A stretch of 42,797 nucleotides of DNA from Gemmatimonadota bacterium (GCA_039586365.1 JBDHKN010000038.1:1-42797); one strand, 5' to 3'. Positions 10,114 to 36,760 are shown, numbered from the stretch's first letter. The notes: generated by a model from the letters alone, not told the origin. Program-made: numbers and translations.

Positions 10114-11316
10114 CTAGAAGCGTGCGTCCACCATCACGAAGCTCCACGCGGCATTCTCGGTAAGCCGCCCTATGTTGCCCCACCCGTCGGCTGCGAGGAC
10201 GTACGCGAATCCGCCCGAGAGTCCCAGGTTGGGGCTGTAGCCATAGGATGCAGTCAGGTCTATCTCCTCACCGAAGTGTCCCGTGCTCAGGCCTGCGTTC
10301 CGTGCCGCATGAAAGGAGTGGACCTCGGCACGGAACGTGACATCCGAGGCCGCCACGAAGGAGCCCTTTACGGCGATGTCTTGCAGTCCACGACCGGCCG
10401 TGTGCAGTGGGATGTTCGTGAAGTGGTCGGCCAGGCCGTAGAACTTGTGGTTGGTGGCAAAGAGCGTGTCGAAGACTTTGATCTTGTCATCCGTGGCATC
10501 GTCGTCGCCCGATAGGTAGTCGTACCAGAGTGTCACATCCGCCGTCCCTCGGGCAAGTGCGGTGCCGACACGGGCACCAAACATGAACGCACTCACGTCG
10601 ACCGCTTCCCTCTCTCCCGTTTGGTAGGAGGCCTCCAGACGGAACTGGATCGAGTTCTTGGTTCCCCACCAGCGGGCACCGACGGTGACCTGGTCGGTAT
10701 TCGCTATGTCGGAAACCCGATTGTAGAGCCCGTAGAAGTCGAGAGTGCCAGGACCGGCCTGGTGTAGTTGACCGTATGCAGCGAGGACGTACTGGTCGTT
10801 GTCGTGGGTTGCAGCAATGTCGTCGGCCAACACCGCTCCGAGCACATCGAGCCTGAACGTGCTTCCCTCCGCAATCAACTTCAGCGCGTCGAACGAACGC
10901 CCCTGTTGGCTCCAGTTCACGGCTCCAACCAGACGCTGGCCGCCGAAGCTCACCTCCTGGCGTCCGGCGCGAGCTGCCAGCTCCGTGGGACCATCGCTCC
11001 GAACGTCGACATAGGCCTGGTGCAGGTCGAGGTTGTCGGCACTGAAGTCGCCCAGAGTGTTCGCTTCCTCACCCCATATTCGTACGTCCTGAAATTGAAT
11101 GAACACGCTCACATTGCGCTCGAGTCCGGCGGTGAGATGTCCCCTCGTCCGCATCGAGATCCAGGATTGGTGCTCACCGCCACTCACCAATATCGGGTTG
11201 CGGTATTCGAAGCGGGGTCGCACCTGCCCACCGAAGGTCAACTCCTGACCGGCAGCCGGCGAGTGAATCAGCAGCAGGCCAGCCAACGCGAGTGAAAGAC
11301 GGCGAACGGTCCTCAT
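10114..11316 (-). CDS. Alginate-export-family outer-membrane beta-barrel porin
   Basis: Signal peptide from MRTVRR with AGGAG RBS; GGQVRPRFE, LHQAYV, GRQEVSFGGQRLVG, RSFDA, FDTLFATNHKFYG; terminal Phe. Confidence 0.85.
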   Translation of the reverse strand: MRTVRRLSLALAGLLLIHSPAAGQELTFGGQVRPRFEYRNPILVSGGEHQSWISMRTRGHLTAGLERNVSVFIQFQDVRIWGEEANTLGDFSADNLDLHQAYVDVRSDGPTELAARAGRQEVSFGGQRLVGAVNWSQQGRSFDALKLIAEGSTFRLDVLGAVLADDIAATHDNDQYVLAAYGQLHQAGPGTLDFYGLYNRVSDIANTDQVTVGARWWGTKNSIQFRLEASYQTGEREAVDVSAFMFGARVGTALARGTADVTLWYDYLSGDDDATDDKIKVFDTLFATNHKFYGLADHFTNIPLHTAGRGLQDIAVKGSFVAASDVTFRAEVHSFHAARNAGLSTGHFGEEIDLTASYGYSPNLGLSGGFAYVLAADGWGNIGRLTENAAWSFVMVDARF

Positions 11317-11336
11317 GACACACTCCTGTTTCATGC

Positions 11337-12398
11337 CTAGATCCGCGCGACGCCGAGGAACACGGCGTGGAGCGAGACCACCATTACCAAGAATACCGTC
11401 CGGGCCACGCGCGGCGACAGCCCGAGCAACCTGTACTCGATGGATTTGCCGCGGCACGCAGATATGCAGTCGCCACATAAGGTGCAGCTCAAACCGGGTC
11501 GGCGTGCCTCGATGTGTTCGGGTCGCAGAGCTCCGTACCGGCACTTGATCGTGCAGGCCCCGCAATCCGTGCACGTATCCTGACTGATCCGCAAGCGAAA
11601 TGGTGCGAGCTTGCCCAGTAGGTTTGCCACCAACCCGATAGGGCAATACATGGCGCAATGGACCATCGTCCCCATGCGGCGCGAGACGAGAACCATGATG
11701 CCCACGCCAATCAGGCCGACAGTGAGACCGGCGGCAGTCGCCGCTGTGCTCGCCACGCCCAGTAACCGCAGTCCCAAGGCTGCGGCCACGATCGCGCCCA
11801 GGATGCCGAGCCGGAACCAATTGCGCCAGCCTGGTAACTGTGTAGGGCGTTTGCGGTCGACAGCAGCGTTCAAATCCCACGAACCTATGTAGCAGAGGTA
11901 GCTGCACCACGCGGGTCCGACCAGGAGCACGGTGACAGTGAACAGGATGGGCATGAACAATCCCTCACCCCGGTACAGTGGCCCTGCCACGATCATGGCG
12001 GGAATGGGCAAATGCAACTTGCCGCTCATCAGGAACCGCTCGACGCCCGTCAAGCCGAGCGCGAGCTGCGCGAAGAACACCAAGGAGAACAGCGTCCACA
12101 GGCGGCGGCGCCACAGGGCCGTGTTGCGGGGATCGTACAGCATGCCGACCAGCCAAGCTGCGTAGGCGGCGAGCAGAATCAACTCGATCCAGCCGGCACC
12201 TGGCACATACCGCTCGGCCATCAGCATTGGACGAGCGACCAAAGTCTGTACCAGCGCGAGCAAAGCGAAGCTCAGAGCGAACGCCGCGACCCGCGGAGCT
12301 ACGCCGGACGGTTCCTGTTTCCGCACACGGATTGGTGGCTTAGCTCTATGAGTGCTCCGCTCAGATGCGACCTGCTCCAGGAGTTGCTGCCCCATCAT
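11337..12398 (-). CDS. Membrane 4Fe-4S polyferredoxin (NapH/YccM-like)
   Basis: Several TM helices; WCSYLCYIG, HCAMYCPIG, CTDCGACTIKC, CTLCGDCISAC. Confidence 0.85.
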   Translation of the reverse strand: MMGQQLLEQVASERSTHRAKPPIRVRKQEPSGVAPRVAAFALSFALLALVQTLVARPMLMAERYVPGAGWIELILLAAYAAWLVGMLYDPRNTALWRRRLWTLFSLVFFAQLALGLTGVERFLMSGKLHLPIPAMIVAGPLYRGEGLFMPILFTVTVLLVGPAWCSYLCYIGSWDLNAAVDRKRPTQLPGWRNWFRLGILGAIVAAALGLRLLGVASTAATAAGLTVGLIGVGIMVLVSRRMGTMVHCAMYCPIGLVANLLGKLAPFRLRISQDTCTDCGACTIKCRYGALRPEHIEARRPGLSCTLCGDCISACRGKSIEYRLLGLSPRVARTVFLVMVVSLHAVFLGVARI

Positions 12399-12408
12399 GT
12401 CCCCGCGC

Positions 12409-12936
12409 CTATGGATGTGAACGGTGGCGGAAGTAAGTGCGGAACTCGCCTGGTCCAACGGTCACGCAATGAGCTTCGCAACCCTGCTTCTGAATGAGAT
12501 CGATGAGGGGTGTCGGGACGAAAGGCGTGATGAGTTCGTAGACTTCGCCAGGAGCCAGCTCAGCGACACCTTGCAGCACTCGGTCGAGCGGGTGACCGCC
12601 ACTCTCAATGATCTGGCGTGCGTCCAAGGTGCGATCCGCGGCTCCGGCATCAGCCCAGTCAGGTCGGCCGCCCGTTGCGTCAGCGACGTCCGTCGCATCG
12701 AAACCGGCCGCATCCCTCAGCCTGGCGATCACCGTCCCGAGCGACAGTTTGTCGGCCCGAGCGAGCTGGGCGAGCGTCATGTTCCGAGCTGCCGCCTGCC
12801 TCAGCTGCGGTGTCTGCAGCGCTCCAAAGGACGGAGAGAGCTCCGCCAGCACGGTCTCCAGATCCGGATAGTTCGCGACCAGCACTCCGACCTTTGTGTC
12901 GGGCGTGATCTGTGTGGTGTCCTTTTCAGTGCACAT
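12409..12936 (-). CDS. DUF1858 + DUF2249 domain protein
   Basis: ITPDTKVGVLVANYPDL N-terminal domain; LDAR...HPL...ITPFVPTPLI C-terminal domain; overlaps the stop of the upstream gene. Confidence 0.75.
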   Translation of the reverse strand: MCTEKDTTQITPDTKVGVLVANYPDLETVLAELSPSFGALQTPQLRQAAARNMTLAQLARADKLSLGTVIARLRDAAGFDATDVADATGGRPDWADAGAADRTLDARQIIESGGHPLDRVLQGVAELAPGEVYELITPFVPTPLIDLIQKQGCEAHCVTVGPGEFRTYFRHRSHP

Positions 12937-14182
12937 CGTTCTGACTCCCCGTGACATACGAGAGCAGACGATGCTCACCCTCGAGCGCCCGTTTCTCAGT
13001 TAGGTCTTGACTCACCTCGAGACATCCCAGGTACCGACCGTCTGTGTCCCGTAGAGCGAAGTACTCGATGCTGATGAATCGTCCCCGTAACGTGATCCAG
13101 AACTGTGCGTGGTTCTGGCGGGCGGCACGAAAGTCGTCGAGGATCCGCTGCACTACGTCGACGCTCTTGGGTGGATGGCAATACTGGACCTTACGACCGA
13201 GTATCGCGCGACTGCGGGAAAAGATCCGCTCGCGTCCCTGGGTGAAGTAGCGAACGGTGTCGTCGTCATCGACGAATGTGAGGTCGAACGGGATCGTATT
13301 GAGTACGGTCTGCAGTTCCACCGGTGTGAAGCTCCCCGATGGTAAGTGGATTCTCTCTGCGCCGCCCTGCGAGTCCGCTAGTTCGGTTGGCAGCACCTCC
13401 GGCTGCCAGGTATCGGTAGGGTCGTACAGGCAGTAGCCGTACTCCCCGCTCTGCCGTCCTATCTCGAACCACTCGGCATCGCTCAGTGTGTCGAGGCACA
13501 TGGGCAAGAGAATCTGCTCTTCCTTTTCGATCATCTCGGCAACTGCCGTCGTGGCCGGCCGTAGAACCAGCTGAATAAGGCCTCTGGCTTCGCGTGCGGT
13601 GACAGTTGGAGTGCTGTGGAGAGTCTCTTGTGCCGCTAGCAGCAGCGACCGGGTCTCGTCATGTTTGCCCCACATGACCTTTGGTGGACCGGTGATGTCG
13701 TGTCGCTCGAGGTAGGGGAACAGGAGGTGCTCCTTGCGCAGGTAGTGTTTCTCAACGTCCATCAAGTTGTTGAAGCGGACCTGCATGTCGCTCAGCTGCG
13801 TCGTCACGTCCGCCTCATCGGGGCGGGCGCGAACTTCGGCAAACAGTTTGTCGAGCGCCTCAGTTTCCCACGCGAGAGCGTTGTTCTCCTTGTGGAAAGT
13901 GTGGGCTGGATGGCCTGGTGGTGGTGTCTTCGCGCCGGCCTGGTCGATGGCACCGCGCAGAGCAGCGGTGTGCAGGTCGCACAGCTTCATCACCTCCTCC
14001 GCCGGCAATCCCTCGTCGATCAGTCGCTGCTCTACCTCCACTACTTCGTTGTACGGTACTTGGCCGAGCAAGCCCACTAGCTGTGTGCGCACCTGTTCGG
14101 GTGCCTCACCCCGGTGCAGCTGCATTATCATGTGCTTGAGGAGCTCCTTGCGGCGCTCCGCGTTTCCTATGAGTTCACTCAT
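12926..14182 (-). CDS. DUF438 / hemerythrin / PAS domain protein
   Basis: VEQRLIDEG..EVMKLCDLH, GHPAHTFHKEN, HYLRKEHLLFP, VMWGKHDE, DLTFVDDDD, GRKVQYCHPPKS. Confidence 0.88.
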   Translation of the reverse strand: MSELIGNAERRKELLKHMIMQLHRGEAPEQVRTQLVGLLGQVPYNEVVEVEQRLIDEGLPAEEVMKLCDLHTAALRGAIDQAGAKTPPPGHPAHTFHKENNALAWETEALDKLFAEVRARPDEADVTTQLSDMQVRFNNLMDVEKHYLRKEHLLFPYLERHDITGPPKVMWGKHDETRSLLLAAQETLHSTPTVTAREARGLIQLVLRPATTAVAEMIEKEEQILLPMCLDTLSDAEWFEIGRQSGEYGYCLYDPTDTWQPEVLPTELADSQGGAERIHLPSGSFTPVELQTVLNTIPFDLTFVDDDDTVRYFTQGRERIFSRSRAILGRKVQYCHPPKSVDVVQRILDDFRAARQNHAQFWITLRGRFISIEYFALRDTDGRYLGCLEVSQDLTEKRALEGEHRLLSYVTGSQNDVH

Positions 14183-14206
14183 GGCGTTTGTCTCGAGTTG
14201 TTGAGT

Positions 14207-14605
14207 TCAACGTGCCTTCACGTCGGCCACAGTAGTGTTGCGGAAGAACTCGTCGATTCGTTCCGCTACCTGCCCCCACCGTTCGTGAGTGGCACAGGGA
14301 TCGTGGTCGCTGCACTTGGCGCGCCCCATGAGGCACTTGCGTTCCTCGCCGAGTTTGTCGAACTGCGCAACAACTGAGAGGAGCGGCAGTTGGTCTGCCG
14401 CCGCTGCGAGTTGGAACCCACCCCGTTTGCCTCTGGCTGACTTGAGAATCCCGGCCCGCGCCAACTCGTGCAGGATCTTTCCCATGTAGTTGGCTGGAAC
14501 GTCCACCGCCCGTGCCAACTCGACGGCACGGACTGGCGTTTCGGCCCCGCAACCAGCGAGGTACACGACTGCTCGGAGCGCGTACTCTGCAGTGCCGGAT
14601 AGCAT
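14207..14605 (-). CDS. Rrf2-family Fe-S transcriptional regulator
   Basis: AEYALRAVVYLA, SARGKRGGFQL, C-x5-C-x5-C-x2-H cluster ligands; GGGGAG RBS. Confidence 0.92.
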   Translation of the reverse strand: MLSGTAEYALRAVVYLAGCGAETPVRAVELARAVDVPANYMGKILHELARAGILKSARGKRGGFQLAAAADQLPLLSVVAQFDKLGEERKCLMGRAKCSDHDPCATHERWGQVAERIDEFFRNTTVADVKAR

Positions 14606-14648
14606 CGGATCAATCTCCCCAGGCTGCCCCTTGCACAAAGTGAGGCTG

Positions 14649-14687
14649 TCAATATATTGATGATAAACGCATGGTAATATGATGTTA
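14649..14687. promoter_or_regulatory. AT-rich divergent control region with palindrome TCAATATATTGA
   Basis: Perfect 12-bp palindrome at 14649-14660 and imperfect TAATATGATGTTA at 14675-14687, between the rrf2 operon and the Rieske operon. Confidence 0.5.
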
Positions 14688-14859
14688 TGTCGGTCGCAAG
14701 TGAGACGAGGAGGGCGCGAGCGAGGAAGATCGTAACGCTGGCGGGCGGTGTGATGGTGAGGTGGCTTGGTTCCAGATGCCCAGGTGACATGGGTAACGAC
14801 CGCGCCGGACGCTTTGGCGTCCTTGCATCAAACGGAACAGTGAGTAGGATATCCGCATT

Positions 14860-15483
14860 ATGACCGGCACGCTCAGACCTGACGATCAGCAGGGTAGTGA
14901 CCGTCGCAAGTTCCTTGGCAACGCCTCTCGCTTTGCGATGGTAGCTGGCTTGGCAGGCGGTTACGGGGGATTCACGGCGATTGCCCTGCGGTATCTCTAC
15001 CCGTCGAGTACCGACGACCGCGTGTGGCAGTTCGTGACTGCGGTCGCTCAGGTCAAGGTCGGAGAAGCAATCAGCTACCGCGGGCCGTCGGGCGAGACAA
15101 TCAACATCACCCGGCAGAACCGCAACGGTGATTCGGACGATTTCATTGCACTATCCAGCACCTGCCCCCACTTGGGCTGCCAGGTGCGTTGGGAGACACA
15201 GAACAATCGCTTCTTCTGCCCCTGTCACAATGGGGTGTTCGATCCCTCCGGTGTGGCGACGGGGGGACCTCCGGGAGAAGCAGGACAGTCGTTGTCTCGC
15301 TACCCGCTCAAGGTGGAAGGTGGGCTGCTCCATATAGCTGTGCCGCCACCTCGTTTCGCGGTGGCGGATGATCAGGGTGACAGCGTTACTGCTGAGGACG
15401 AGATCAGTGGCCCGGGCCACGATCCCTGTCTCCAGTGCGGACCACGGCGACATCGCGGAGACGCCGGGGTGCGGGAAGTCTGA
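14860..15483 (+). CDS. Rieske 2Fe-2S subunit of a Rieske/cytochrome b complex
   Basis: DRRKFL Tat anchor; CPHLGC and CPCHNGVFD boxes; GGPP. Confidence 0.93.
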   Translation: MTGTLRPDDQQGSDRRKFLGNASRFAMVAGLAGGYGGFTAIALRYLYPSSTDDRVWQFVTAVAQVKVGEAISYRGPSGETINITRQNRNGDSDDFIALSSTCPHLGCQVRWETQNNRFFCPCHNGVFDPSGVATGGPPGEAGQSLSRYPLKVEGGLLHIAVPPPRFAVADDQGDSVTAEDEISGPGHDPCLQCGPRRHRGDAGVREV

Positions 15484-15484
15484 G

Positions 15485-16534
15485 TTGGATCTCGTGCGGA
15501 ACTGGGTGGGTGAACGCCTGCCGGTCTCGGGAAGGCAGTTCAAGGAACTCACCAACGAACCGGTCCCGTATCATCTCAAACGCTGGTGGTTCGCGCTCGG
15601 TGGCACGCCCGCCTACCTGTTCATAGTCCAGATCTTCACCGGTATCCTACTGGCGTTCTACTACGAGCCTTCACCGGCAACGGCCTATCAGTCGGTGGAG
15701 TTCATTACACGAGAAGTTGCCTTCGGCTGGTTCATTCGCAGCGTCCATAAGTGGGCGGCGACCCTCATGATCGCGGCAGTAATCCTGCACCAGATTCGGG
15801 TCTTCTTCACCGGCGCGTACCGCAGGCCCCGCGAGATCAACTGGTTTGTGGGCATGTGCCTCCTGCTCACCACGCTGCTCACCGGGTTCACGGGCTACAG
15901 CCTCGTGTTCGAGCAACTGAGCTTCTGGGGTGCAACAGTTGGTGCGAACATCGCGGACACGACGCCGCTGGTCGGTGGCTTCCTGAAGAACATGATGCTG
16001 GCCGGCCCCAGCTACAATCAGGCCACACTCTCCAGGTTCTTCATACTGCATGCGGCGGTGCTGCCAGTCACGATCGTCCTTTTGATAGCGGCACACATAA
16101 CGATCATCCGGCTACAGGGTGTGACCGAGTTCCAGTTCAAGTCCGAAGAGGGTGGAGCGCCCAAGACATTCAACTTCTTCCCGGACCATTTGTATACCGA
16201 GCTGATCATCGGCCTGCTCTTGATGATTCTGCTGAGCGCATTGGCGACGATCTTCCCGGCCACGATGGGTCCGCAGGCCGACCCGCTCCAGACGCCAGAG
16301 GTTATCAAGCCGGAATGGTTCTTCTACGTGGCATTTCGCTGGCTCAAGCTGTTCGGCGGCACGGTGGCTGTGCTGAGCATGGGCTTCATCATCTTCACGA
16401 TGTTTGCCTGGCCCCTGATAGATGGTTGGATTCGTAGGCACACGAAGTTCCAGGAAGCCAGTGTATGGGTGGGGGTGTTTGGTGCCCTCGCGGTCATCAG
16501 CCTGACCGTGTGGGAGGCAGTGGCAAGGCACTAG
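15485..16534 (+). CDS. Cytochrome b (b6 and subunit IV regions in one chain)
   Basis: RSVHKW..ILHQIRVF, AYRRPRE, GFTGYSL, FFILHAA..AAHI, IKPEWFFY; TTG start inferred just after the Rieske stop. Confidence 0.93.
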   Translation: MDLVRNWVGERLPVSGRQFKELTNEPVPYHLKRWWFALGGTPAYLFIVQIFTGILLAFYYEPSPATAYQSVEFITREVAFGWFIRSVHKWAATLMIAAVILHQIRVFFTGAYRRPREINWFVGMCLLLTTLLTGFTGYSLVFEQLSFWGATVGANIADTTPLVGGFLKNMMLAGPSYNQATLSRFFILHAAVLPVTIVLLIAAHITIIRLQGVTEFQFKSEEGGAPKTFNFFPDHLYTELIIGLLLMILLSALATIFPATMGPQADPLQTPEVIKPEWFFYVAFRWLKLFGGTVAVLSMGFIIFTMFAWPLIDGWIRRHTKFQEASVWVGVFGALAVISLTVWEAVARH

Positions 16535-16543
16535 GGGATACAC

Positions 16544-18184
16544 ATGACTCTCGAGACAAAACGCATCGTGATAGCCGCCCTCGGCGGCCTGTTCCTTATC
16601 TCACTCGTCTTCGTGCAGTGGATGGAGACTGCGCGCAAGGCGGAGGAGGCCGGACTGCGGGAACCGCACATCTCGGTTCCTGCCGCGTCACGCGAGTGCT
16701 TCGACTGCCACGCGGAAGAGAACCCAGGGATCATCGCCCACTGGACCGGTAGTACCCATGCGGAGAGAGGTGTCGGTTGTTACGACTGCCACGAGGCGGA
16801 ACGGGAAGAAGCCGACTCGTACCTGCACCACGGTGTTGTGATCGCGACTATCGTGACGCCGCGAGACTGCGCGCGCTGTCATCCGGCGGAAGCGGAGGAG
16901 TTTGCTCAGAGCCACCATGCCGCGGGCGGCAACATTCTTGCGTCGCTGGACAACTTCTTGGCCGAGACAGTCGAGGGGGCGCGGATGGAGTTCGACCCCC
17001 ATTCGCCGACGCCAGGCAAAACTGTACAGTTGGTCAATGGATTTGCCAGTGCCAACTCCGGCTGCCAGCAGTGCCACGGTGCCAAGGTGGCGCTCGCAGC
17101 CACGGGCGGTGGCGTGATAACGGTCGACGATCTGGAACCGGACGAGACCGGCCGCCCCACGAACCTGGATGCGGTCGGCAGGATCGCTCGCGACGAAAAT
17201 GGCCGGCCACTCATCAACGCTCGTACCTGGCCGAACACCGGCATTGGTCGTCTCAATCTGGATGGCTCGCGCGGATCGTGCACCGCATGCCACAGCCGCC
17301 ATGACTTCTCTCCGCGACGTGCGCGGCAACCGGAAAACTGCGGCAAGTGTCATCTAGGTCCCGATCACCCGCAGAAAGAGATCTACGAGGAATCAAAGCA
17401 TGGCATCGCCTATCGTGATCTCAAGGATGACATGAACCTGGATGCCGCAGACTGGATTCTCGGCGAGGACTATGCCGCTGCGCCCACCTGCGCAACGTGT
17501 CACATGTCGGGCAACTTGAGGAACGGTGGACGCATCACGCACGACCCCGGTGTGCGTATCTCGTGGACCAATCGACCGGCGGTGAGCCTGGTAATGGACA
17601 CCGACATCAACCATGGCATAGTGACTGAGTCTGACCCGGAACAACGCCGCATGCTGATTCACGACACGGCTGAGCAAAAGCGGGATCGAATGAAGGACGT
17701 CTGCTCTCACTGCCACACCGTGGACTACGTCAATTCGTTCTATGAGCAGTACGATGCGCTCGTTGTCCTGTACAACGAGAAGTTCGCCAAGCCCGGGCTC
17801 GAAATCATGGCCGCGGTCCAAGATGCGGGTCTCCGGACCCCGACGCAGTTTGATGAGGAGATCGAGTGGTCCTGGTTCTATCTCTGGCATCACGAGGGGC
17901 GCCGGGCCCGGCATGGGGCTTCGATGATGGCGCCGGATTACACCCACTGGCACGGCATGTATGAGGTCGCCGAGCGTTTCTACATGGAGCTGATTCCGCA
18001 GGCAAGGGAACTCGCCGACCGCGCCGCGCAGGCGGGTAGAGTATCAGCGGCCCGTGCCGTGAACCGAGCGATCGATGAAGTCCTCTCACGGCCTGAGCAC
18101 ATCTGGTTCGAGGAGGGGGCTGAAGCCCAGGCGGAAGCGATCCGGCGAGAGATGGAACGCAGGTACGGACCGCCGTCTCGCTGA
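16544..18184 (+). CDS. HAO-family octaheme cytochrome c with N-terminal membrane anchor
   Basis: Eight CxxCH motifs (CFDCH, CYDCH, CARCH, CQQCH, CTACH, CGKCH, CATCH, CSHCH); GPDHPQKEIYEESKHG; APTCATCHM; MMAPDYTHWHG. Confidence 0.92.
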   Translation: MTLETKRIVIAALGGLFLISLVFVQWMETARKAEEAGLREPHISVPAASRECFDCHAEENPGIIAHWTGSTHAERGVGCYDCHEAEREEADSYLHHGVVIATIVTPRDCARCHPAEAEEFAQSHHAAGGNILASLDNFLAETVEGARMEFDPHSPTPGKTVQLVNGFASANSGCQQCHGAKVALAATGGGVITVDDLEPDETGRPTNLDAVGRIARDENGRPLINARTWPNTGIGRLNLDGSRGSCTACHSRHDFSPRRARQPENCGKCHLGPDHPQKEIYEESKHGIAYRDLKDDMNLDAADWILGEDYAAAPTCATCHMSGNLRNGGRITHDPGVRISWTNRPAVSLVMDTDINHGIVTESDPEQRRMLIHDTAEQKRDRMKDVCSHCHTVDYVNSFYEQYDALVVLYNEKFAKPGLEIMAAVQDAGLRTPTQFDEEIEWSWFYLWHHEGRRARHGASMMAPDYTHWHGMYEVAERFYMELIPQARELADRAAQAGRVSAARAVNRAIDEVLSRPEHIWFEEGAEAQAEAIRREMERRYGPPSR

Positions 18185-18256
18185 GAATGCTCTTGGGCGA
18201 GATGGTGGTGAAGTTCGGGGCAAAGACATGCAAAGAATGGTGAAGAGCGAGTCGTC

Positions 18257-20638
18257 ATGAGACGTAGAGACTTCTTGCAGGTTCTGGGAACTGGATCGGC
18301 TGGCGTTGCGGCGTTTTCCTGTGCCGACCGGGAGGCAGCGCGCCGGATCGGAGCGGAGCAGGGCACTCTGGCGGACGCCGATCTGTCCTGGTCGAAGGCG
18401 CCTTGCCGCTACTGTGGCACTGGTTGCGGCGTCGAGGTGGGCGTGAAGGATGGGCGGGTGATGGCGGTCCGAGGGGATGTGGCGAATCCAGTGAACCGCG
18501 GCTTGCTGTGCGTGAAGGGATACCATCTGCCGGCCATGCTCTACGGCGAGGACCGTCTCCGGTATCCGATGAGACGCGATGTCAACGGGCGTGGTTGGAC
18601 CCGCATCTCCTGGGACGAGGCCCTGGATCTCATCGCATCTAAGTATCGCGAGGCCCTCGACGAGAGCGGTCCCGAAGCGGTGGCGTTCTACGGTTCGGGA
18701 CAGTGGGGTGTGCATGACGGTTACGCGGTGTCGAAGTGGTTCCGCGGCGGCTTGCGGAGCAACAACGTAGAGCCCAATGCGCGGCTCTGCATGGCCTCGG
18801 CCGTAATGGGCTTCATGACCCAATTTCAGAGCGACGAGCCGATGGGCTGTTATGAGGATTTCGAGTCCGGTGACGACTTCGTTCTCTGGGGCAACAACAT
18901 GGCCGAGATGCACCCGGTTCTGTTCTCGCGGATCTTGGCCAACAAGCGCGCGAATCCTGGAGTGCGGATAGTCGACATTGGTACGCGACGTACGCCAACG
19001 ACCGACTACGCCGACATGTACGTCGAGTTCAAGCCCAACAGCGACTTGGCGTTGGCCAACGGGATCCTGCATTTGCTGATCGCGCAAGGGAAGGTGGACA
19101 ACGCGTTCATTCGCGAGAACGTGGTGTTCCGACGCGGTATCGAGGATCTAGATCGAATCGGCTACGGGTGTTTCGGGGCAGACGGAACGGCTACCAAGCA
19201 TTCGGCCGGTCCGGCAGAGCGGTACGGCTTCCGCGACGAGGCGCGAGAGTCCTCGTTCTCCGAACTCGCGACGTTTCTGCAAGACTACGCACCGGCGCGC
19301 GTCAGCGAGATTACTGGCGTGCCCGAGCCGCAGATCCGTGCGTTGGCAGACATCTACGGTGACTCAGGGCGGGGCACGGTGAGCCTGTGGTGCATGGGCG
19401 TGAACCAGCATGTTCGCGGTACATGGATGAACAACCTGATCACCGACCTGCACCTCATCACCGGCAAGATCAGCCGCCCTGGTGCCAACCCCTTCAGCCT
19501 CACCGGGCAGCCGTCAGCGTGTGGCACCGCACGGGAGGTAGGCACGTTGGCGAACCGTCTGCCGGCCGACATGGTCGTGACCAACCCGGAACATCGCGCC
19601 AAGGCCGAAGAGATCTGGGGTCTACCGACGGGCACCATCCCAGAGCGGCCCGGCTACCATACGATGGACATGTTTCGGGCGTTCATGCGGGGTGACGTCA
19701 AGGTGATGTGGGTACAGACCACGAATCCTTGGATGAGCATCCCCAATCTGGGTCGCATTGAGCGCAGTCCTGACGATGGCACGTTCCTCATCGTGAGCGA
19801 CATCTATCCAACACCCACCACCGAGGCGGCTGATCTCGTGTTACCATCGGCGGCTTGGGTAGAGCGCGAGGGTGTGTTCGGGAATTCCGAGCGCCGCACG
19901 CAGCATTGGGACAAAGCGGTCGATCCGCCAGGCGAGGCCATGGAAGATGCATGGCAAGTCATTCAAGTGGCCAAACGGATGGGTATGGAGCACCTGTTCC
20001 CCTGGCCCGACGATGACTGGCACGAGCCGATGTTCGAGGAATACCGCCGATTCGGACTTGGTATTGGGAAAGACCTCGCCTCGTACCAGCAGCTCAAGGA
20101 AACGAGAGGGATGCTGTGGCCCGTGGTCGATGGCAAGGAGACGCGCTACCGCTACAGCGCGGAGCACGATCCCTACGTGGAGAAAGCCCGCGGAGTCCAC
20201 TTCTACAAAGCCAAAGGGTACGGTGAAAAAGCCGCATTCTGGCTCCGCCCCTGGCATCCGGCGGCGGAGTCGCCGGACGGTGAGTACCCGTTCTGGCTGT
20301 GCACGGGCCGTGTACTGGAACACTGGCATACAGGCTCGATGACGCGGCGAGTGAAACAACTGCACCAGGCGGTTCCTGAATCGTATGTCGAGATCAATAG
20401 AGCGGATGCTGTGGAACTGAGTATCAAGTCGGGTGATTGGGTTCGCGTAGTGAGTCGCCGTGGCTCCCTCGAGTTGCGAGCGATGGTGGATGGTCGCGGG
20501 AAGCCTGCCAGGGGATCGCTGTTCATGCCCTTCTTCGATGAGGCGAAACTAGCCAATGTGCTCACGCTTGATGCGATGGACAACATCAGTAAAGAACCCG
20601 ATTTCAAGAAATGTGCAGTCCGGATAGAACGAGCCTGA
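18257..20638 (+). CDS. napA: Periplasmic nitrate reductase catalytic subunit
   Basis: RRRDFL Tat motif; CRYCGTGC..CVKG 4Fe-4S site; NARLCMASA Mo-ligand Cys; SLTGQPSACGTARE; TGRVLEHWHTGSMTRR; EPDFKKCAV. Confidence 0.96.
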   Translation: MRRRDFLQVLGTGSAGVAAFSCADREAARRIGAEQGTLADADLSWSKAPCRYCGTGCGVEVGVKDGRVMAVRGDVANPVNRGLLCVKGYHLPAMLYGEDRLRYPMRRDVNGRGWTRISWDEALDLIASKYREALDESGPEAVAFYGSGQWGVHDGYAVSKWFRGGLRSNNVEPNARLCMASAVMGFMTQFQSDEPMGCYEDFESGDDFVLWGNNMAEMHPVLFSRILANKRANPGVRIVDIGTRRTPTTDYADMYVEFKPNSDLALANGILHLLIAQGKVDNAFIRENVVFRRGIEDLDRIGYGCFGADGTATKHSAGPAERYGFRDEARESSFSELATFLQDYAPARVSEITGVPEPQIRALADIYGDSGRGTVSLWCMGVNQHVRGTWMNNLITDLHLITGKISRPGANPFSLTGQPSACGTAREVGTLANRLPADMVVTNPEHRAKAEEIWGLPTGTIPERPGYHTMDMFRAFMRGDVKVMWVQTTNPWMSIPNLGRIERSPDDGTFLIVSDIYPTPTTEAADLVLPSAAWVEREGVFGNSERRTQHWDKAVDPPGEAMEDAWQVIQVAKRMGMEHLFPWPDDDWHEPMFEEYRRFGLGIGKDLASYQQLKETRGMLWPVVDGKETRYRYSAEHDPYVEKARGVHFYKAKGYGEKAAFWLRPWHPAAESPDGEYPFWLCTGRVLEHWHTGSMTRRVKQLHQAVPESYVEINRADAVELSIKSGDWVRVVSRRGSLELRAMVDGRGKPARGSLFMPFFDEAKLANVLTLDAMDNISKEPDFKKCAVRIERA

Positions 20639-21228
20639 TCGGGCTGGCAACGCTCGCAATCACTTCGTTCGGGATCGCGTGCGGTGGTCGGTGGGTCGAG
20701 GTTCCGGGAACCGAGGGGACCCTGAAGTCGGCTGCGGCGGTGCGCGCAGAGCGCCGCTTGTACGACGGCGCACCGCCGGTGATACCGCATACCGACTTTG
20801 GAGCGGATTGCAGTGCCTGTCACGATTCAAGGGGGATCTCGCTGGAAGGTGTCGGTTATGCACCGGCATCGCCTCACGACGCCACGAGCTCGTCGAGTGG
20901 CACTGTGCGCTGCCGTCAGTGTCACGTGTTCCGCACCACCGCCGATCTGTTCGTAGCCAGTGAATTCGTGGGCCTTAAGCAGAATCTGCGCGTCGGCGGC
21001 CGTCTCAATCCGATCTCACCACCCACGATTCCACACCAGATCTTCATGCGTGAGAACTGCCTGGCTTGTCACTCGGGGCCGGCAGCCCGAGAGGAGATCC
21101 GGACGGCGCACCCCGATCGCGTCCGCTGCAGGCAGTGTCACCTAGCAGTGACTATTCGGAGCGAATTCAAGAGTGAACTGGGGGCCGGTCTGACCGGCAG
21201 CGATTCGACTCAAACCGAGCCAGATTAG
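20611..21228 (+). CDS. napB: NapB-like tetraheme cytochrome c lipoprotein (duplicated diheme unit)
   Basis: Two repeats of PPxIPH..CxxCH..H..RCRQCH; FGIAC lipobox-like signal; overlaps the napA stop. Confidence 0.85.
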   Translation: MCSPDRTSLIGLATLAITSFGIACGGRWVEVPGTEGTLKSAAAVRAERRLYDGAPPVIPHTDFGADCSACHDSRGISLEGVGYAPASPHDATSSSSGTVRCRQCHVFRTTADLFVASEFVGLKQNLRVGGRLNPISPPTIPHQIFMRENCLACHSGPAAREEIRTAHPDRVRCRQCHLAVTIRSEFKSELGAGLTGSDSTQTEPD

Positions 21229-21242
21229 AGCTGGGAACTGCA

Positions 21243-21809
21243 ATGAGTCACTTACCTGAAGTGATCGAGCTGGGGCCAGAGGAGGAATTCCAGCGGCTCT
21301 GGACTGGCGCGCTGGAGGCGCAGAGATCGGCGCCTACGAGTCTGGTCTCGTTGTGTGAGTCATTGGACCTGGGTCTCCACGCCGCGGAGATTCTTGTCAT
21401 TCAGCGTTTGCAGCTCATCAAGGATCAGTTCCCGGCCACGATTGCGATCCAGCTCGAGACTCCAGCGCCTGAGGTGGATGCGTATCGCGACGCCATCTCG
21501 GTTCCCAAGTCACTGCAGTTCACCGACGTCGTCGATCTACTAAGTGCTCCAGCGCTCGACTGCGTGAGCCCCGGGATGCACCGGGGGTGGGAGGATCGGC
21601 GGTTCTCGTGCCGGCGGTCCAGAGCCACCGCACAGGGAGCCATAGGTGTGACCCTGGATGCCACAGCCCGGGACCAGCTACTGCTACTTGCGGCCTACCG
21701 TAACCGACTCTTTCGCTATCCACCGCCCATTCGTCTAGTCACCCGAGAGATTGCCGGCGCGTTCGAAAGCCTCGTGGTCCTCGTAACCGGAATTCGCGCC
21801 GCCGGGTAG
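21243..21809 (+). CDS. Hypothetical soluble protein, 188 aa
   Basis: ATG ORF 14 nt after napB; no family recognised. Confidence 0.6.
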   Translation: MSHLPEVIELGPEEEFQRLWTGALEAQRSAPTSLVSLCESLDLGLHAAEILVIQRLQLIKDQFPATIAIQLETPAPEVDAYRDAISVPKSLQFTDVVDLLSAPALDCVSPGMHRGWEDRRFSCRRSRATAQGAIGVTLDATARDQLLLLAAYRNRLFRYPPPIRLVTREIAGAFESLVVLVTGIRAAG

Positions 21810-21980
21810 ATCAGCTCGGTCGAGCCGCATGCCGCGACCCTGCCGGCTCTTCCCGACGACACCCCATTTCCGACGCGGCCGTAGCACAGCCGTCCCCACG
21901 CGCAGGTTGCGCCGAGGCAGATAGATGCGAAGAGGGCCGCAACTGGTTGCGACCCTGGATGTCTCTGCCGATCCCGCCAG

Positions 21981-22421
21981 TCAGCCTGCCCTGGTGTCGT
22001 TGTCGCGAGCTGGCCTGGTGGCGGGCCACTGCGACTGGTAGTCACCTTCTCCGGCGAGCCACTGTTCAGCTTCCGCCATGGCTCTGAACACCATGAGTTC
22101 TATCCCCAAATCCTCCAGGTATACTTGCGCAACCCTCACGGTGCCGTAGTCCACGTCGCGATTCGTTACTACCGCGCTCCTGCCCCTCCATCCCGCGCCC
22201 AGGCGCTCCGAGACCGTGGAGATGATGCTCGGGATTTGTTTGGGCAGCACCGAGATCCGCGCGTTCCGTAGATCCCACAACACGTGCACGCCGGCACTCA
22301 AGTGAGACTCGTCGAAGAGCATCTCCATCGTGACTGAAATGTCCTGAGGAGAGACCTCGCCACGCATGGTGACAACCACCCGCTTCGGCTGACTGTCAAT
22401 CCGAATGGAAATCGTCGGCAT
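21981..22421 (-). CDS. SpoIIAA-like (STAS/SEC14) hypothetical protein
   Basis: VLWDLRNA, RSAVV, VFRAMAEAEQWL pattern. Confidence 0.65.
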   Translation of the reverse strand: MPTISIRIDSQPKRVVVTMRGEVSPQDISVTMEMLFDESHLSAGVHVLWDLRNARISVLPKQIPSIISTVSERLGAGWRGRSAVVTNRDVDYGTVRVAQVYLEDLGIELMVFRAMAEAEQWLAGEGDYQSQWPATRPARDNDTRAG

Positions 22422-22424
22422 CGT

Positions 22425-22453
22425 GATACTCTTTGCTTCGTTTCACCGTTTCA
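22425..22453 (-). promoter_or_regulatory. Putative ECF promoter TGAAAC-N17-AGTATC (possibly leaderless)
   Basis: Ends 3 nt before the ATG at 22421; one mismatch to CGTATC. Confidence 0.4.
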
Positions 22454-22616
22454 TTGCCCGTGATTACCGGCAACCAACTCCGCGTGGCATGCTGTGAGCT
22501 GAATGTATCTAGTGCTTTGCTCGGCGCCAGTGCGGTGTTGAATGGATGCACTGTGACGCGGGGGAAGGGACTGACGCTCGGTCATCTCCCCGCTCGCGGC
22601 ACAGCGCGGACGGGAT

Positions 22617-23025: not shown

Positions 23026-25683
23026 CTGCGGCAGAAAGCGACGTTCACCCTTCGCGTCTGTGAAACACTGCTCGACGCGGCCGCAGTTGTCATCCCGGTC
23101 GCGGAGCGGCCGGAGTGGGTCGAAGAATGGCGCGGCGAGTTGTGGCACCGGTGGCACTGTCTCCAGTCGGGTGGGAGGATGTCGCTGGGAGCCCAGCTCG
23201 ATCTCATCTGGAAGAGCTTCGGTGCAGTCACCCACGCCCTGTGGCTGGCCGGTCGAGAATGGAGATCTCAAATCGTGTTGTACGATCTGCGATTCACAAT
23301 CCGCAATCTGCTCAAGAAGCCCGGTTTCACCCTCATCGTCTTGGGCTCGCTCATGCTCGGCATCGGTGCGAACACCCTGGTGTTCAGTGTCGTCGATGCC
23401 TTGATCCTCCATCCGTTCCCCTATCCCGATGGCAAACACCTGGTGGCTATCGGTGTCACCTTCCCACGGCTGGGAGGCGAACGGGAATTCATCGAGGCCA
23501 TCTCGGCTCCAGAATACGGTGATATCAGGACGCACAGTGTGACCTTAGAGCGGATTGTCGCCTTCGATCTGGGAAACAGGGATCTCGGCGGGGTCGCCGA
23601 ACCGCAGCGGCTGTTCACCGCGTTCTTCTGGGGTGACGCCTTTCAGACGCTGGGCATGCGGCCGGCTTTGGGCCGTGGATTCCTGCCCAGCGAGATCGAA
23701 CAGGGGCAGCCGGTCGCCGTCATCAGTCACCGGACATGGCAGTCGCAGTTCGGTGGCGATTCCGGCATCGTGGGCCAGAGCATAACTGTGAATGGGAAAC
23801 CCATGACTCTGGTCGGCGTGATGCCGCCGCGGCTGCTGTTGTTGGATTCAGATCTGTGGCTACCGATGTGGGTATCGCCCGAGGTGCTGCCTCGCAATCG
23901 CAGACAGTTCAACGTGCTGGCGCGAGTCAGCGAAGGATACTCACTCCAGGACGTGAACAGTGAGCTTGCGGCAGTTGCCGGCCGCTTGGAGCAGACATAC
24001 TTGGGTGAGTACCCCGAGTACGAGGGTTGGCGGATATCGGCGGAAGAGTTCACTGCGGTCTGGTCAGGGTTGCTGGGGCCAGCTGGCTTCGTTTTGCTGG
24101 GTGCGGTTGGCTTCGTGCTACTACTTGCCTGTGCCAACATTGCCAATCTGCTGTTGGCACGCTGGGCGGTCAGGCACCGTGAGATCGCGGTGCGGGCAGC
24201 CCTGGGAGCAGGCAGACTCCGGCTTGCCCAGCAGCTGCTGACGGAGAGTATGGTGCTGGCTCTGCTGGGTGGTGCCTTGGGATTGGTGCTCGCCGTCGCC
24301 GGCAGGGGAGCTGCGGTTGCCCTGGTGCCGGCTGACCTAATCCCGGGAAGCGCCGAGTTCGAGCTGAACTACAGAGTGCTCCTTTTCACGGTAGTCCTAT
24401 CGGTTGCTTCCGGCTTTGTATTTGGACTGCTGCCGGCACTGCAGGGCTCCAAGACAGACCTGCAACAGATACTCAGTAGCGAAGGCGGTCGCACTACCGC
24501 TGCAGGGACTGCGTTGCGAGTCCGGCAGGCGTTCATCATTGCGCAGGCAGCTATAGCAATCGTGCTGCTCACGGGAGCTGGTCTGCTACTCAAGAGCTTT
24601 GGCAACCTGAGGGGCATCGATCCGGGGTTCGATCCTGCCAACGTGTTGACCTTGCGGATCACGCTGCCGCGCGAACGGTACCAGGGAGAAGATGTCGCGG
24701 TGTTCTTTGAGCGCTTGGTGGACCAAGTGGTTGCCCTCCCCGGAGTGAGCAGCGCTGCCGTCACGTCGCAGTTCCCTCCTTCCCAGCCGTTCGATGGGCA
24801 ATTCCGCGTGGAGGGGCAGGATCAAGGTGCTGAAGAGACTCTGCCGGTCACACTGATAACGATAGTGAGTCCGAGATATTTCGATGTGCTTGGCCTACGT
24901 CTGGTGCAGGGGCGCACACTCACGAAGGATGACAACGCTGCAGCACCGCTCACGGTGATCATCAATCAGACTTTTGCCCGGCGCTATTTCCCAAACGAAG
25001 ATCCGGTGGGCAAGCGCATTGCTGGTAGCGCGGGAGGGTGGAGGACTGTCGTTGGAGTGGTCTCGGATGCACGAAATCGCGGCGTGGAATCCGATGTGAT
25101 GCCGGAGCTGTTCGTTCCGGTAAGACAGAACGACGGAGTGATGAATCAACTCCACTTGCTCACGCGGACCCGGGGAGGCGCGCTGGCAATGTTGCCCACG
25201 GTTCGCGCCACGGTGCAGGGATTGGATCCGGACCTTCCAGTATACGCGGTGCACACGCTGGAGGGTCGGCTGGCGTCGGCTGTCGCTCCACAGCGGATCG
25301 CGACGGCTGTGTTGACGGTGCTCGGAGCAGTGGCTCTGGGCCTGGCCTCAATGGGGATCTATGGCGTCATCTCGTATTGGGTTGCGGACCGCACCAGAGA
25401 ACTGGGAGTGCGTTTGGCCCTTGGTGCGGCAGGCCGCGAGATCGTAGCCATTGTCATGAGCCAGGTCATCAAGCTCGTCACTGTCGGAGTTGTTCTTGGG
25501 CTCGTGACTGCCGTCGCGCTCTCGCGCACGTTGCGGAGCCTGCTCTTCAATGTTGGCGGCATTGATATGGTCGCCTTTGCGGTTGCGGTCGGTGTCCTCG
25601 CCGTCGTTGCACTCATCGCCGGATACGTACCGGCGGTCAGGGCGGCGCGCCTCGATCCGGTCACCGCTCTGCGCCACGAATGA
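23026..25683 (+). CDS. ADOP-type duplicated ABC permease
   Basis: DLRFTIRNLLKKPGF, LGIGANT, LACANIANLLLAR, RTRELGVRLALGA, DPVTALRHE; N-terminal EWVEEWRGELW extension lies upstream of the first TTG (23140), so a CTG start at 23026 is inferred. Confidence 0.9.
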   Translation: MRQKATFTLRVCETLLDAAAVVIPVAERPEWVEEWRGELWHRWHCLQSGGRMSLGAQLDLIWKSFGAVTHALWLAGREWRSQIVLYDLRFTIRNLLKKPGFTLIVLGSLMLGIGANTLVFSVVDALILHPFPYPDGKHLVAIGVTFPRLGGEREFIEAISAPEYGDIRTHSVTLERIVAFDLGNRDLGGVAEPQRLFTAFFWGDAFQTLGMRPALGRGFLPSEIEQGQPVAVISHRTWQSQFGGDSGIVGQSITVNGKPMTLVGVMPPRLLLLDSDLWLPMWVSPEVLPRNRRQFNVLARVSEGYSLQDVNSELAAVAGRLEQTYLGEYPEYEGWRISAEEFTAVWSGLLGPAGFVLLGAVGFVLLLACANIANLLLARWAVRHREIAVRAALGAGRLRLAQQLLTESMVLALLGGALGLVLAVAGRGAAVALVPADLIPGSAEFELNYRVLLFTVVLSVASGFVFGLLPALQGSKTDLQQILSSEGGRTTAAGTALRVRQAFIIAQAAIAIVLLTGAGLLLKSFGNLRGIDPGFDPANVLTLRITLPRERYQGEDVAVFFERLVDQVVALPGVSSAAVTSQFPPSQPFDGQFRVEGQDQGAEETLPVTLITIVSPRYFDVLGLRLVQGRTLTKDDNAAAPLTVIINQTFARRYFPNEDPVGKRIAGSAGGWRTVVGVVSDARNRGVESDVMPELFVPVRQNDGVMNQLHLLTRTRGGALAMLPTVRATVQGLDPDLPVYAVHTLEGRLASAVAPQRIATAVLTVLGAVALGLASMGIYGVISYWVADRTRELGVRLALGAAGREIVAIVMSQVIKLVTVGVVLGLVTAVALSRTLRSLLFNVGGIDMVAFAVAVGVLAVVALIAGYVPAVRAARLDPVTALRHE

Positions 25684-32669: not shown

Positions 32670-32834
32670 CGCGGTGTCCGTCCAATCTGCCAGCATCAAG
32701 CTAGTTCCGGCGCAACTCAGGGCTACGCGACAGTGTGGATTACGGGCGTTCCAGCACTCTTGTTGCTTGCAACTGAGGCGTCTCCAATTGAAGTTAGATC
32801 CCAACACGTGATTGGTCACTCCTTACCTGATCGG

Positions 32835-36536: not shown

Positions 36537-36760
36537 TACCAACTGTAAACTCAGAATGGCGACGTGGGAACCCGGGTACTAGCGTATCCCTGCGAACTGA
36601 ACGACAAATCTGTAACCCGGTTATGGAAGCGCGGGTGCGCATAAGGGAGTATTTTTGTGTTTGCAGACCGAGTGCCTTGGCCAAGACACAGTCCTGCACC
36701 TCCACTAGTTGAGCAGCCCAGAGATACCAGCCCGCTGCAGAGAACCGGGGCACATGACGG

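Follow-up and report, generated by a model that had tools for sequence, protein, structure and literature searches.

The window analysed here is the whole of a 42,797-nt contig (C64) from the 5.44-Mb draft genome of a Gemmatimonadota bacterium, which comprises 132 contigs and is 86% complete. An original prediction, made from the sequence alone, had read five closely spaced, co-directional genes at 14860-21228 as encoding a Rieske protein, a cytochrome b, an octahaem cytochrome c of the HAO family, the periplasmic nitrate reductase NapA and, in last place, NapB. Open reading frame (ORF) and family analysis bore out these identities and their order, with the last gene qualified below as a tandem NapB, and gave intergenic gaps, in gene order, of 1, 9, 72 and -28 nt (Table 1).

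The Rieske gene matched PF00355 (E 6.8e-10; 39.2 bits against a cut-off of 20.3), and its translation contains the CPHLGC and CPCH cluster boxes, with the 2Fe-2S ligands and disulfide cysteines, together with the twin-arginine motif DRRKFLG. Cytochrome b matched PF00033 (E 1e-51, 175.9 bits) and PF00032 (E 2.1e-8). The long ORF that encodes it begins at 15368, within the Rieske gene, and a TTG codon at 15485 lies one base past the Rieske stop; this codon is the likely start, because the resulting protein of 349 aa fits homologues of 347-350 aa. The haem-ligand residues H88, H102, H189 and H204 and the Qo-site residues P276-E277-W278 (PEWY-type) were invariant in 24 cytochrome b sequences. Every score against the NCBIfam equivalogs (b6, ExtP and QcrB) fell under its cut-off, and the protein is therefore placed in a separate cytochrome b subfamily. 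No gene for cytochrome c1 or cytochrome f is present in the operon, and the octahaem gene occupies that position.

The octahaem cytochrome has CxxCH motifs at residues 52, 79, 109, 174, 246, 266, 316 and 387 and a single hydrophobic helix at its N-terminus, and it matched PF13447 (E 2.2e-22; 80 bits against a cut-off of 21.9). When its profile was searched against the PDB, all eight matches were HAO-family entries. The nearest solved relative was IhOCC of Ignicoccus hospitalis (4QO5; E 1e-44 with the single sequence and 1.5e-52 with the profile), followed by the Kuenenia entry 6H5L (profile E 7.3e-30), which we take to be the reductive HAOr Kustc0458, and then by oxidative HAOs and hydrazine dehydrogenase. 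A stretch of the form CxxCHxRHxFS...CxxCHxGxDH aligns with Nitrosomonas HAO (4FAS/1FGJ), placing GPDH 272-275 on GVDH 265-268, in which D267-H268 is presumably the distal catalytic pair. D274, H275 and the haem-4 motif CQQCH of the window protein were invariant in 28 sequences from many phyla, and the octahaem core was 90% conserved per column among relatives. An AlphaFold2 model of the protein, with a mean predicted local distance difference test score (pLDDT) of 61.7, was too poor to use.

NapA scored 949.1 bits against NF010055 (cut-off 904) and 923.5 bits against TIGR01706, just under the cut-off of 930.55. Its translation carries the twin-arginine translocation (Tat) motif RRRDFL and an N-terminal CxxCxxxC...C, and its nearest solved relatives are 2NYA (E 3.9e-241), 3ML1 and 1OGY, the NapA proteins of E. 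coli, C. necator and R. sphaeroides. The gene is single-copy in the genome, where other molybdoenzymes are at most 37% identical to it (over 169 aa) and at most 28% identical over alignments of at least 240 aa.

The product of the last gene, termed NapB4 here, has four CxxCH motifs arranged in two halves that are 36% identical to each other (E 3e-9), each repeating the layout PPxIPH...CxxCH...PH...CxQCH. Against the Pfam NapB family PF03892 it scored 20.8 bits, under the cut-off of 25.1, which places it outside the canonical dihaem NapB. A profile of 32 NapB4 sequences had the solved NapB chains 1OGY_B, 1JNI_A and 3ML1_B as its top three matches (E ~1e-4), and the lipobox Cys was at least 90% conserved in the family, for which 1952 database relatives were found. 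The AlphaFold2 model (mean pLDDT 61.0) was too poor to use, and a Foldseek search with it against the PDB gave no match at E <=0.001, with a NapB chain at rank 5 (E 6). The predicted identity thus held as far as the profile is concerned and failed on the number of haems and the Pfam score; on these comparisons we class the protein as NapB-like, tandem and lipid-anchored, and set it apart from the canonical NapB.

Table 1. Features of the operon and its flanks, in positions of the 42,797-nt window
Feature	Position	Strand	Basis or remark
Rieske [2Fe-2S] subunit with Tat signal	14860..15483	+	PF00355, motifs
Cytochrome b, b6/subunit IV fusion, likely TTG start	15485..16534	+	PF00033, PF00032
Membrane-anchored octahaem cytochrome c, HAO family, IhOCC-like, 546 aa	16544..18184	+	PF13447, 8 CxxCH
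NapA, periplasmic nitrate reductase catalytic subunit, Tat signal, 4Fe-4S motif	18257..20638	+	NF010055
Tandem four-haem NapB-like cytochrome c (NapB4), 205 aa, probable lipoprotein	20611..21228	+	Start overlaps napA stop by 28 nt
ORF of 188 aa, no family, follows tandem NapB by 14 nt	21243..21809	+	Operon membership uncertain
Divergent intergenic region, presumed operon promoter region	14639..14859	.	Position only; promoter-like sites not above shuffle expectation
Rrf2-family regulator, divergent from operon, C-x6-C-x5-C motif	14207..14638	-	PF02082, E 1.5e-28
NapH-like membrane ferredoxin, in divergent operon	11337..12458	-	TIGR02163, 46.5 bits against cut-off 213

Conservation of the module and the supply of electrons to Nap

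To follow the gene order in other organisms, species-representative genomes (one per species) were scanned for the octahaem gene. At least 594 relatives were found, and the best 80 loci, whose octahaems are 64-85% identical to that of the window, were analysed. Module carriers belong to at least six named phyla (Gemmatimonadota, Acidobacteriota, Planctomycetota, Myxococcota, Eiseniibacteriota and Krumholzibacteriota). Cytochrome b was encoded directly 5' of the octahaem gene, on the same strand, in 79 of the 80 loci, and a Rieske homologue directly 5' of cytochrome b in 74; the six misses were four contig ends, one partial match and one locus with the pair on the opposite strand. Eight CxxCH motifs were present in 78 of the 79 complete octahaem homologues. 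Linkage to NapA was scored on 75 loci, since five had too little downstream DNA: NapA lay directly 3' of the octahaem gene in 39, and in the other 36 the trio stood without it. NapB4 followed NapA in every locus with a complete NapA (33/33), and all 33 of these NapB4 homologues have four CxxCH motifs. Spacing in the relatives is operon-like, with medians of -0.5 nt from Rieske to cytochrome b (n=74), 11 nt from octahaem to napA, often with an overlap (n=39), and -4 nt from napA to napB4 (n=33). The synteny that the original prediction had named as its own first test is therefore conserved in 39 of the 75 assessable loci, across the phyla listed. Its view of the five genes as the unit needs amendment in one respect; because 36 of 75 loci have the trio alone, we regard Rieske, cytochrome b and octahaem as the core module and NapA-NapB4 as a frequent add-on.

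At the 36 Nap-less loci the next gene was often on the opposite strand, and no enzyme recurred there. The commonest extra neighbours across loci were an AlgE-type porin (12), a sigma-54 activator (9) and haem-copper oxidase subunit I (9). Within Gemmatimonadota, an octahaem match at E <=1e-50 was present in 19 of 301 sampled genomes, eight of these at 80% identity or more (own genome included), and this patchy distribution fits horizontal spread. In two Nap-less planctomycete loci (L075:9538-10062 and L076:9634-10056) a globin gene directly follows the octahaem gene, which hints at a link to NO (nitric oxide) or O2 handling.

From gene order and conserved motifs, we consider it fairly probable that the operon encodes one respiratory module, with a Rieske/cytochrome b core, the octahaem standing in for cytochrome c1, NapA and NapB4, which would carry out proton-motive reduction of both nitrate and nitrite. 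Menaquinol would be oxidised at the Qo site of cytochrome b, a protein with a conserved PEW motif and four conserved haem-b histidines. The Rieske cluster would pass one electron on to the haems of the octahaem, a membrane-anchored protein in place of cytochrome c1 or f, whose five-coordinate catalytic haem would reduce nitrite. In the other branch, electrons would pass from the octahaem to the lipid-anchored NapB4 and on to NapA, which would act in the periplasm to convert nitrate to nitrite. Since the quinol would be oxidised by a Q-cycle-type complex and not by NapC or NapGH, the two reductions would each be proton-motive. What we infer in this scheme is that the proteins associate physically, how electrons flow and branch, what the product is and that energy is coupled.

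Several observations weigh against this reading. In a quick maximum-likelihood tree built from 78 octahaems, after removal of two rows with an odd length, the window protein fell within a clade of nine Gemmatimonadota-type rows, all with Nap (Shimodaira-Hasegawa-like approximate likelihood ratio test, SH-aLRT, 100); on the tree as a whole, the Nap label needed 12 changes, at least four of them forced by well-supported branches. Judged by this tree, NapAB joined or left the trio on at least four occasions, and its linkage is looser than that within the trio. The 72-nt gap upstream of napA is the widest of the operon and could be a promoter site; no terminator-like site was found in it when 14100-22600 was scanned for promoters and terminators, and counts in that scan were not above those in shuffles. 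Contig C6 encodes a fused NapH-NapG-like protein (NapG 109 bits against 269, NapH 75.7 against 213), and two genes for QrcA/ActA-like pentahaem proteins are also present in the genome, as is the weak NapH-like gene of the divergent operon in the window. A truncated protein with at least seven haems at the end of contig C120 is over the Pfam NrfA-family cut-off (47.9 bits), with no NrfA equivalog, and could be another nitrite reductase. Finally, the remaining 14% of the genome could be the place of a napC, nrfA or nirK gene.

These points bear on an alternative in which the trio is a self-contained quinol:nitrite (or NO or hydroxylamine) reductase, with NapA-NapB4 merely co-located and co-regulated and Nap served by another donor. 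Candidates for that donor are the NapH/NapG-like fusion, the upstream NapH-like protein, or an ACIII/Qrc-type complex acting via a soluble carrier. The loci with a trio and no Nap, the repeated switching of the Nap label, the width of the gap before napA and the presence of NapH/NapG-like and QrcA-like genes are what such a separation would predict. However, the NapH/NapG-like proteins score far under their cut-offs, their genes lie either in the divergent operon or elsewhere than on this contig, and a NapH-like neighbour occurs in just one of the 80 related loci. In relatives, moreover, napA follows the octahaem gene closely or overlaps it, NapB4 accompanied NapA without exception, and no recurrent napC or napGH was found near the 39 Nap-linked loci. 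We therefore regard a separate donor for Nap as rather unlikely, and continue to prefer a supply through the octahaem.

The 86%-complete genome yielded no NapD, no true NapH above cut-off (the best score in the genome search was 40 bits against 213) and no NapC/NrfH, the sole PF03264 match being part of a 21-haem protein that is encoded in a large multihaem cluster. The prediction that the window lacks napC, napD and napG was thus correct in that no napC, napD or true napGH lies beside the operon, and has to be amended for the weak NapH-like gene listed in Table 1.

A probable catalytic role of the octahaem and the fate of nitrite

The octahaem looks catalytic, more than an electron wire, because its haem-4 CQQCH and Asp-His residues are invariant, because IhOCC and 6H5L are its two best solved relatives, and because the trio so often occurs without a partner enzyme. 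In the accessible text of PMC9250108, a phylogeny groups IhOCC with HAO/HDH, in HAO clade 1, and IhOCC is described as a nitrite reductase without the P460 cross-link. The accessible text of PMC8042395 reports reduction of nitrite to NO, and also of NO and hydroxylamine, by the cross-link-less HAOr Kustc0458/7, and reduction of nitrite and hydroxylamine by the eHAOs of epsilonproteobacteria. A point on the other side is that the C-terminus of the window octahaem gave no alignment to NeHAO; the invariant residues Y466 and Y480 lie in that region, so the question of a cross-link Tyr arises there.

The octahaem might instead be an electron wire only, a long substitute for cytochrome c1 that conducts electrons from the Rieske protein to NapB4 and NapA, or to other periplasmic acceptors in Nap-less genomes. 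Its gene does lie at the position of the c-type subunit of bc complexes, and its product has a membrane anchor. In addition, the genome contains four Rieske/cytochrome b pairs, and all four adjoin a gene for a cytochrome c with at least seven haems, most of these being unlikely enzymes; this pattern fits one multihaem outlet per Rieske/cytochrome b complex and speaks for the favoured single-module scheme as well. A wire alone is harder to reconcile with the invariance, across phyla, of the catalytic-pocket Asp-His and haem-4 motif and with the high conservation of the core. The nearest solved relatives, moreover, are described as enzymes (IhOCC, and Kustc0458 if, as we assume, 6H5L is that protein), and no acceptor enzyme recurs beside the trio in the 36 Nap-less loci. 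We consider the wire improbable, and a catalytic octahaem remains the preferred reading.

The three further Rieske/cytochrome b pairs are at C55:36749-38018, C55:51836-53016 and C92:17715-19490, and the cytochromes c that adjoin them have 7 to 21 haems. The multihaem cluster on contig C55 encodes proteins of 8, 9, 9, 9, 11, 11, 19 and 21 haems, and is reminiscent of extracellular electron transfer systems.

The product of nitrite reduction was considered in relation to the other nitrogen enzymes of the genome. The original prediction of a system without nrfA, nirS or nirK was confirmed within the 86% that is available, in which neither NirS nor NirK was found and no NrfA equivalog was matched. 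Searches of the same assembly found no NO reductase, no NirA/B, no NarG, NosZ or Hcp, and no second HAO-family gene. There was likewise no siroheme nitrite reductase, the sole NIR_SIR matches in the genome being DsrA and DsrB. Ammonium is favoured as the product because NO reductase, NirA/B and NrfA were not found, and because of the Nitrospira and eHAO precedents. NO is kept as a possible product because of the result with Kuenenia HAOr, which, according to the accessible text of PMC8042395, yields NO and not ammonium with donors in the physiological range, and because of the nearby Rrf2 and hemerythrin genes; both points count against ammonium. Our preference for ammonium over NO is thus slight, and is a weak call.

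The matches to DsrA (573 bits) and DsrB (494 bits) lie together with DsrP at C97:51554-54940 (locus L112), and the organism would, from its gene content, have a dissimilatory-type sulfite reductase system beside Nap and the octahaem.

A broader form of the scheme can be put forward tentatively. The five proteins might constitute one membrane supercomplex that reduces nitrate to ammonium, with eight electrons and with energy conservation by a Q-cycle, free of NrfA and spread by gene transfer among sediment Gemmatimonadota, Acidobacteriota, Planctomycetota and others. We think this possible, and on balance doubtful.

Gene neighbourhood and a possible detoxifying function

The operon is preceded by a divergent string of genes on the minus strand (10114-14638), which encodes the Rrf2-family regulator, a DUF438/hemerythrin/PAS_10 protein, a DUF1858+DUF2249 protein, the NapH-like ferredoxin and an AlgE-type (Alginate_exp) porin. 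This set of domains resembles, as we presume, gene sets for NO or nitrosative stress. The Rrf2 protein scored 112.6 bits against the superfamily model TIGR00738 and was under the cut-offs of the NsrR and IscR equivalogs. An Rrf2 gene lies near the module in few of the 80 relatives, and the region between the Rrf2 and Rieske genes showed no inverted repeat; a regulatory link between this protein and the operon is something that we infer. The Alginate_exp porin may let anions such as nitrate or nitrite through.

This neighbourhood raises the possibility that the module serves mainly in detoxification or assimilation, clearing nitrite, NO or hydroxylamine arising from Nap under microoxic conditions and Rrf2 control, with little contribution to growth. 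Besides the divergent Rrf2 gene and its DUF438/hemerythrin/PAS and DUF1858/DUF2249 companions, the genome has two haem-copper oxidases, which are its only COX1-family genes and point to a probable aerobe or microaerobe, and a homologous-looking Nitrospira module is read as assimilatory in the accessible text of PMC12342949. Yet a Q-cycle complex is a costly means of detoxification, the position of the Rrf2 gene beside the module is not conserved, and NCBIfam does not assign its product to NsrR. We judge a mainly detoxifying or assimilatory module to be very unlikely, and retain respiration as its probable function.

Downstream of the operon, the 188-aa ORF matched no family in Pfam or NCBIfam. 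In 5 of the 80 loci, all Gemmatimonadota, NapB4 is followed by a homologue at 52-69% identity, and a comparison with the protein atlas gave weak HEPN-like leads only (score 0.90-0.91). A role as a NapD-like chaperone was considered for this ORF and was not supported, given the lack of a family match and the weakness of the HEPN-like leads.

Farther along the window, a 632-aa protein encoded at 34644-36542 (-) combines a CuA-type cupredoxin domain (weak matches to the NosZ C-terminus and to CoxB) with a NapH-like Fer4_5 membrane ferredoxin, and adjoins a gene for a 506-aa four-haem cytochrome c at 32733-34253 (+). A similar cupredoxin protein is encoded on contig C51, and searches of the genome revealed no catalytic domain of NosZ. 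The window also has three genes for ADOP/MacB-type duplicated permeases, at 1901-4402 (-), 23140-25683 (+) and 27012-30611 (+); one of these permeases (1199 aa) carries a Ser/Thr protein kinase domain at its N-terminus as a fusion.

Published precedents and implications

The original prediction took the complete arrangement as not known to have been characterised, and the literature supports this in part. A compact Rieske-cytochrome b-octahaem-NapA-NapB4 operon that does without NapC, G, H, M, D and F was not found in the full texts searched, which lay outside subscription journals and supplements; the Caldithrix paper cited below was the one relevant result for the five-gene arrangement, and neither a four-haem tandem NapB nor the phylum breadth of the module was found in those texts. 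The novelty was nevertheless overstated, in view of the precedent for the wiring in Caldithrix and of the Nitrospira and C. jejuni Qcr-Nap systems, all described here from the accessible portions of the papers cited.

One of these is the nap cluster of Caldithrix abyssi, Cabys_2564-2556 (Kublanov et al., 2017, PMC5317091), which contains NapA, Rieske/cytochrome b and an adjacent eHao, with no NapC in the cluster as described. In that paper, the Rieske/cytochrome b complex was proposed to be a quinol oxidase that feeds a tetrahaem carrier and/or the octahaem and generates proton-motive force. In gene content, the two clusters are alike in bringing together NapA, Rieske/cytochrome b and an HAO-type octahaem, described as cross-link-less in Caldithrix, without NapC. 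They differ in that the Caldithrix cluster, as described, includes napM, for a tetrahaem of another kind, together with napG, napH and napF and is without napB, whereas the operon in the window is without NapGH, NapM and NapF. The order is different as well, since in Caldithrix the nap genes come first and the octahaem last.

An octahaem termed 'OCC' or 'ONR' adjoins the Rieske/cytochrome b genes petBC in Nitrospira (PMC6311188, PMC12342949, PMC5767232). This three-gene unit of Rieske, cytochrome b and periplasmic octahaem is read as a quinol-dependent nitrite reductase that makes ammonium, and the accompanying expression data are supportive. In contrast to the operon studied here, the Nitrospira unit is placed in a nitrogen-assimilation cluster, with no NapAB in the published account, and it is likened to our trio by gene context. 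Among anammox bacteria, the R/b-3 complex has extra subunits. The Rieske/cytochrome b complex R/b-3 of Kuenenia stuttgartiensis includes the HAO-like kuste4574 (cited in PMC9325076), and is thus another bc-type gene cluster with an HAO-family octahaem; as described, it differs in working in the anammoxosome and in having no Nap attached.

For the supply of Nap from a bc-type complex, there is experimental evidence from Campylobacter jejuni, in which QcrABC feeds NapAB with an H+/2e- of 2 (Garg, Taylor and Kelly, 2018, PMC6195509). There, qcr and nap lie at separate loci, the cytochrome c of Qcr is a dihaem protein and NapB is an ordinary dihaem protein, with no octahaem in the published description. 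IhOCC is the best solved sequence relative of the window octahaem, and is described as a nitrite reductase without a P460 cross-link (PMC9250108); it is archaeal, and no Rieske/cytochrome b context is reported for it in the accessible text. The DNRA (dissimilatory nitrate reduction to ammonium) module of Trichlorobacter ammonificans was also considered as the closest relative and was rejected, its enzyme being, according to papers that cite it, a CxxCK-type ONR of a different family. One study (PMC10732223) lists napAB and hao for several OFTM metagenome-assembled genomes (MAGs) of our locus set, and Rieske is not mentioned in it. The concept of the wiring is therefore already in print, in Caldithrix, Nitrospira, Kuenenia R/b-3 and the C. 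jejuni route from Qcr to Nap, and the operon introduces no new principle. The interpretation given in the original prediction is plausible and, at the level of sequence, well supported by comparative genomics.

In the textbook view, a Nap that is fed by NapC or NapGH does not conserve energy. If the proposed wiring is true, periplasmic reduction of nitrate and nitrite in these bacteria would conserve energy, unlike reduction by such a Nap, and the enzyme acting on nitrite would belong to the HAO family, which surveys of marker genes overlook or assign to nitrification. If the supercomplex reading is true as well, a major DNRA pathway would be invisible to surveys based on nrfA, nirS and nirK. 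Because the octahaem family is large and conserved, with at least 594 relatives and with 64-85% identity to the window protein across phyla in the best 80, assigning its function would change how many MAGs from sediment and soil are annotated for the nitrogen cycle. What the operon offers is that an idea already proposed is made testable on a simple and widespread five-gene unit.

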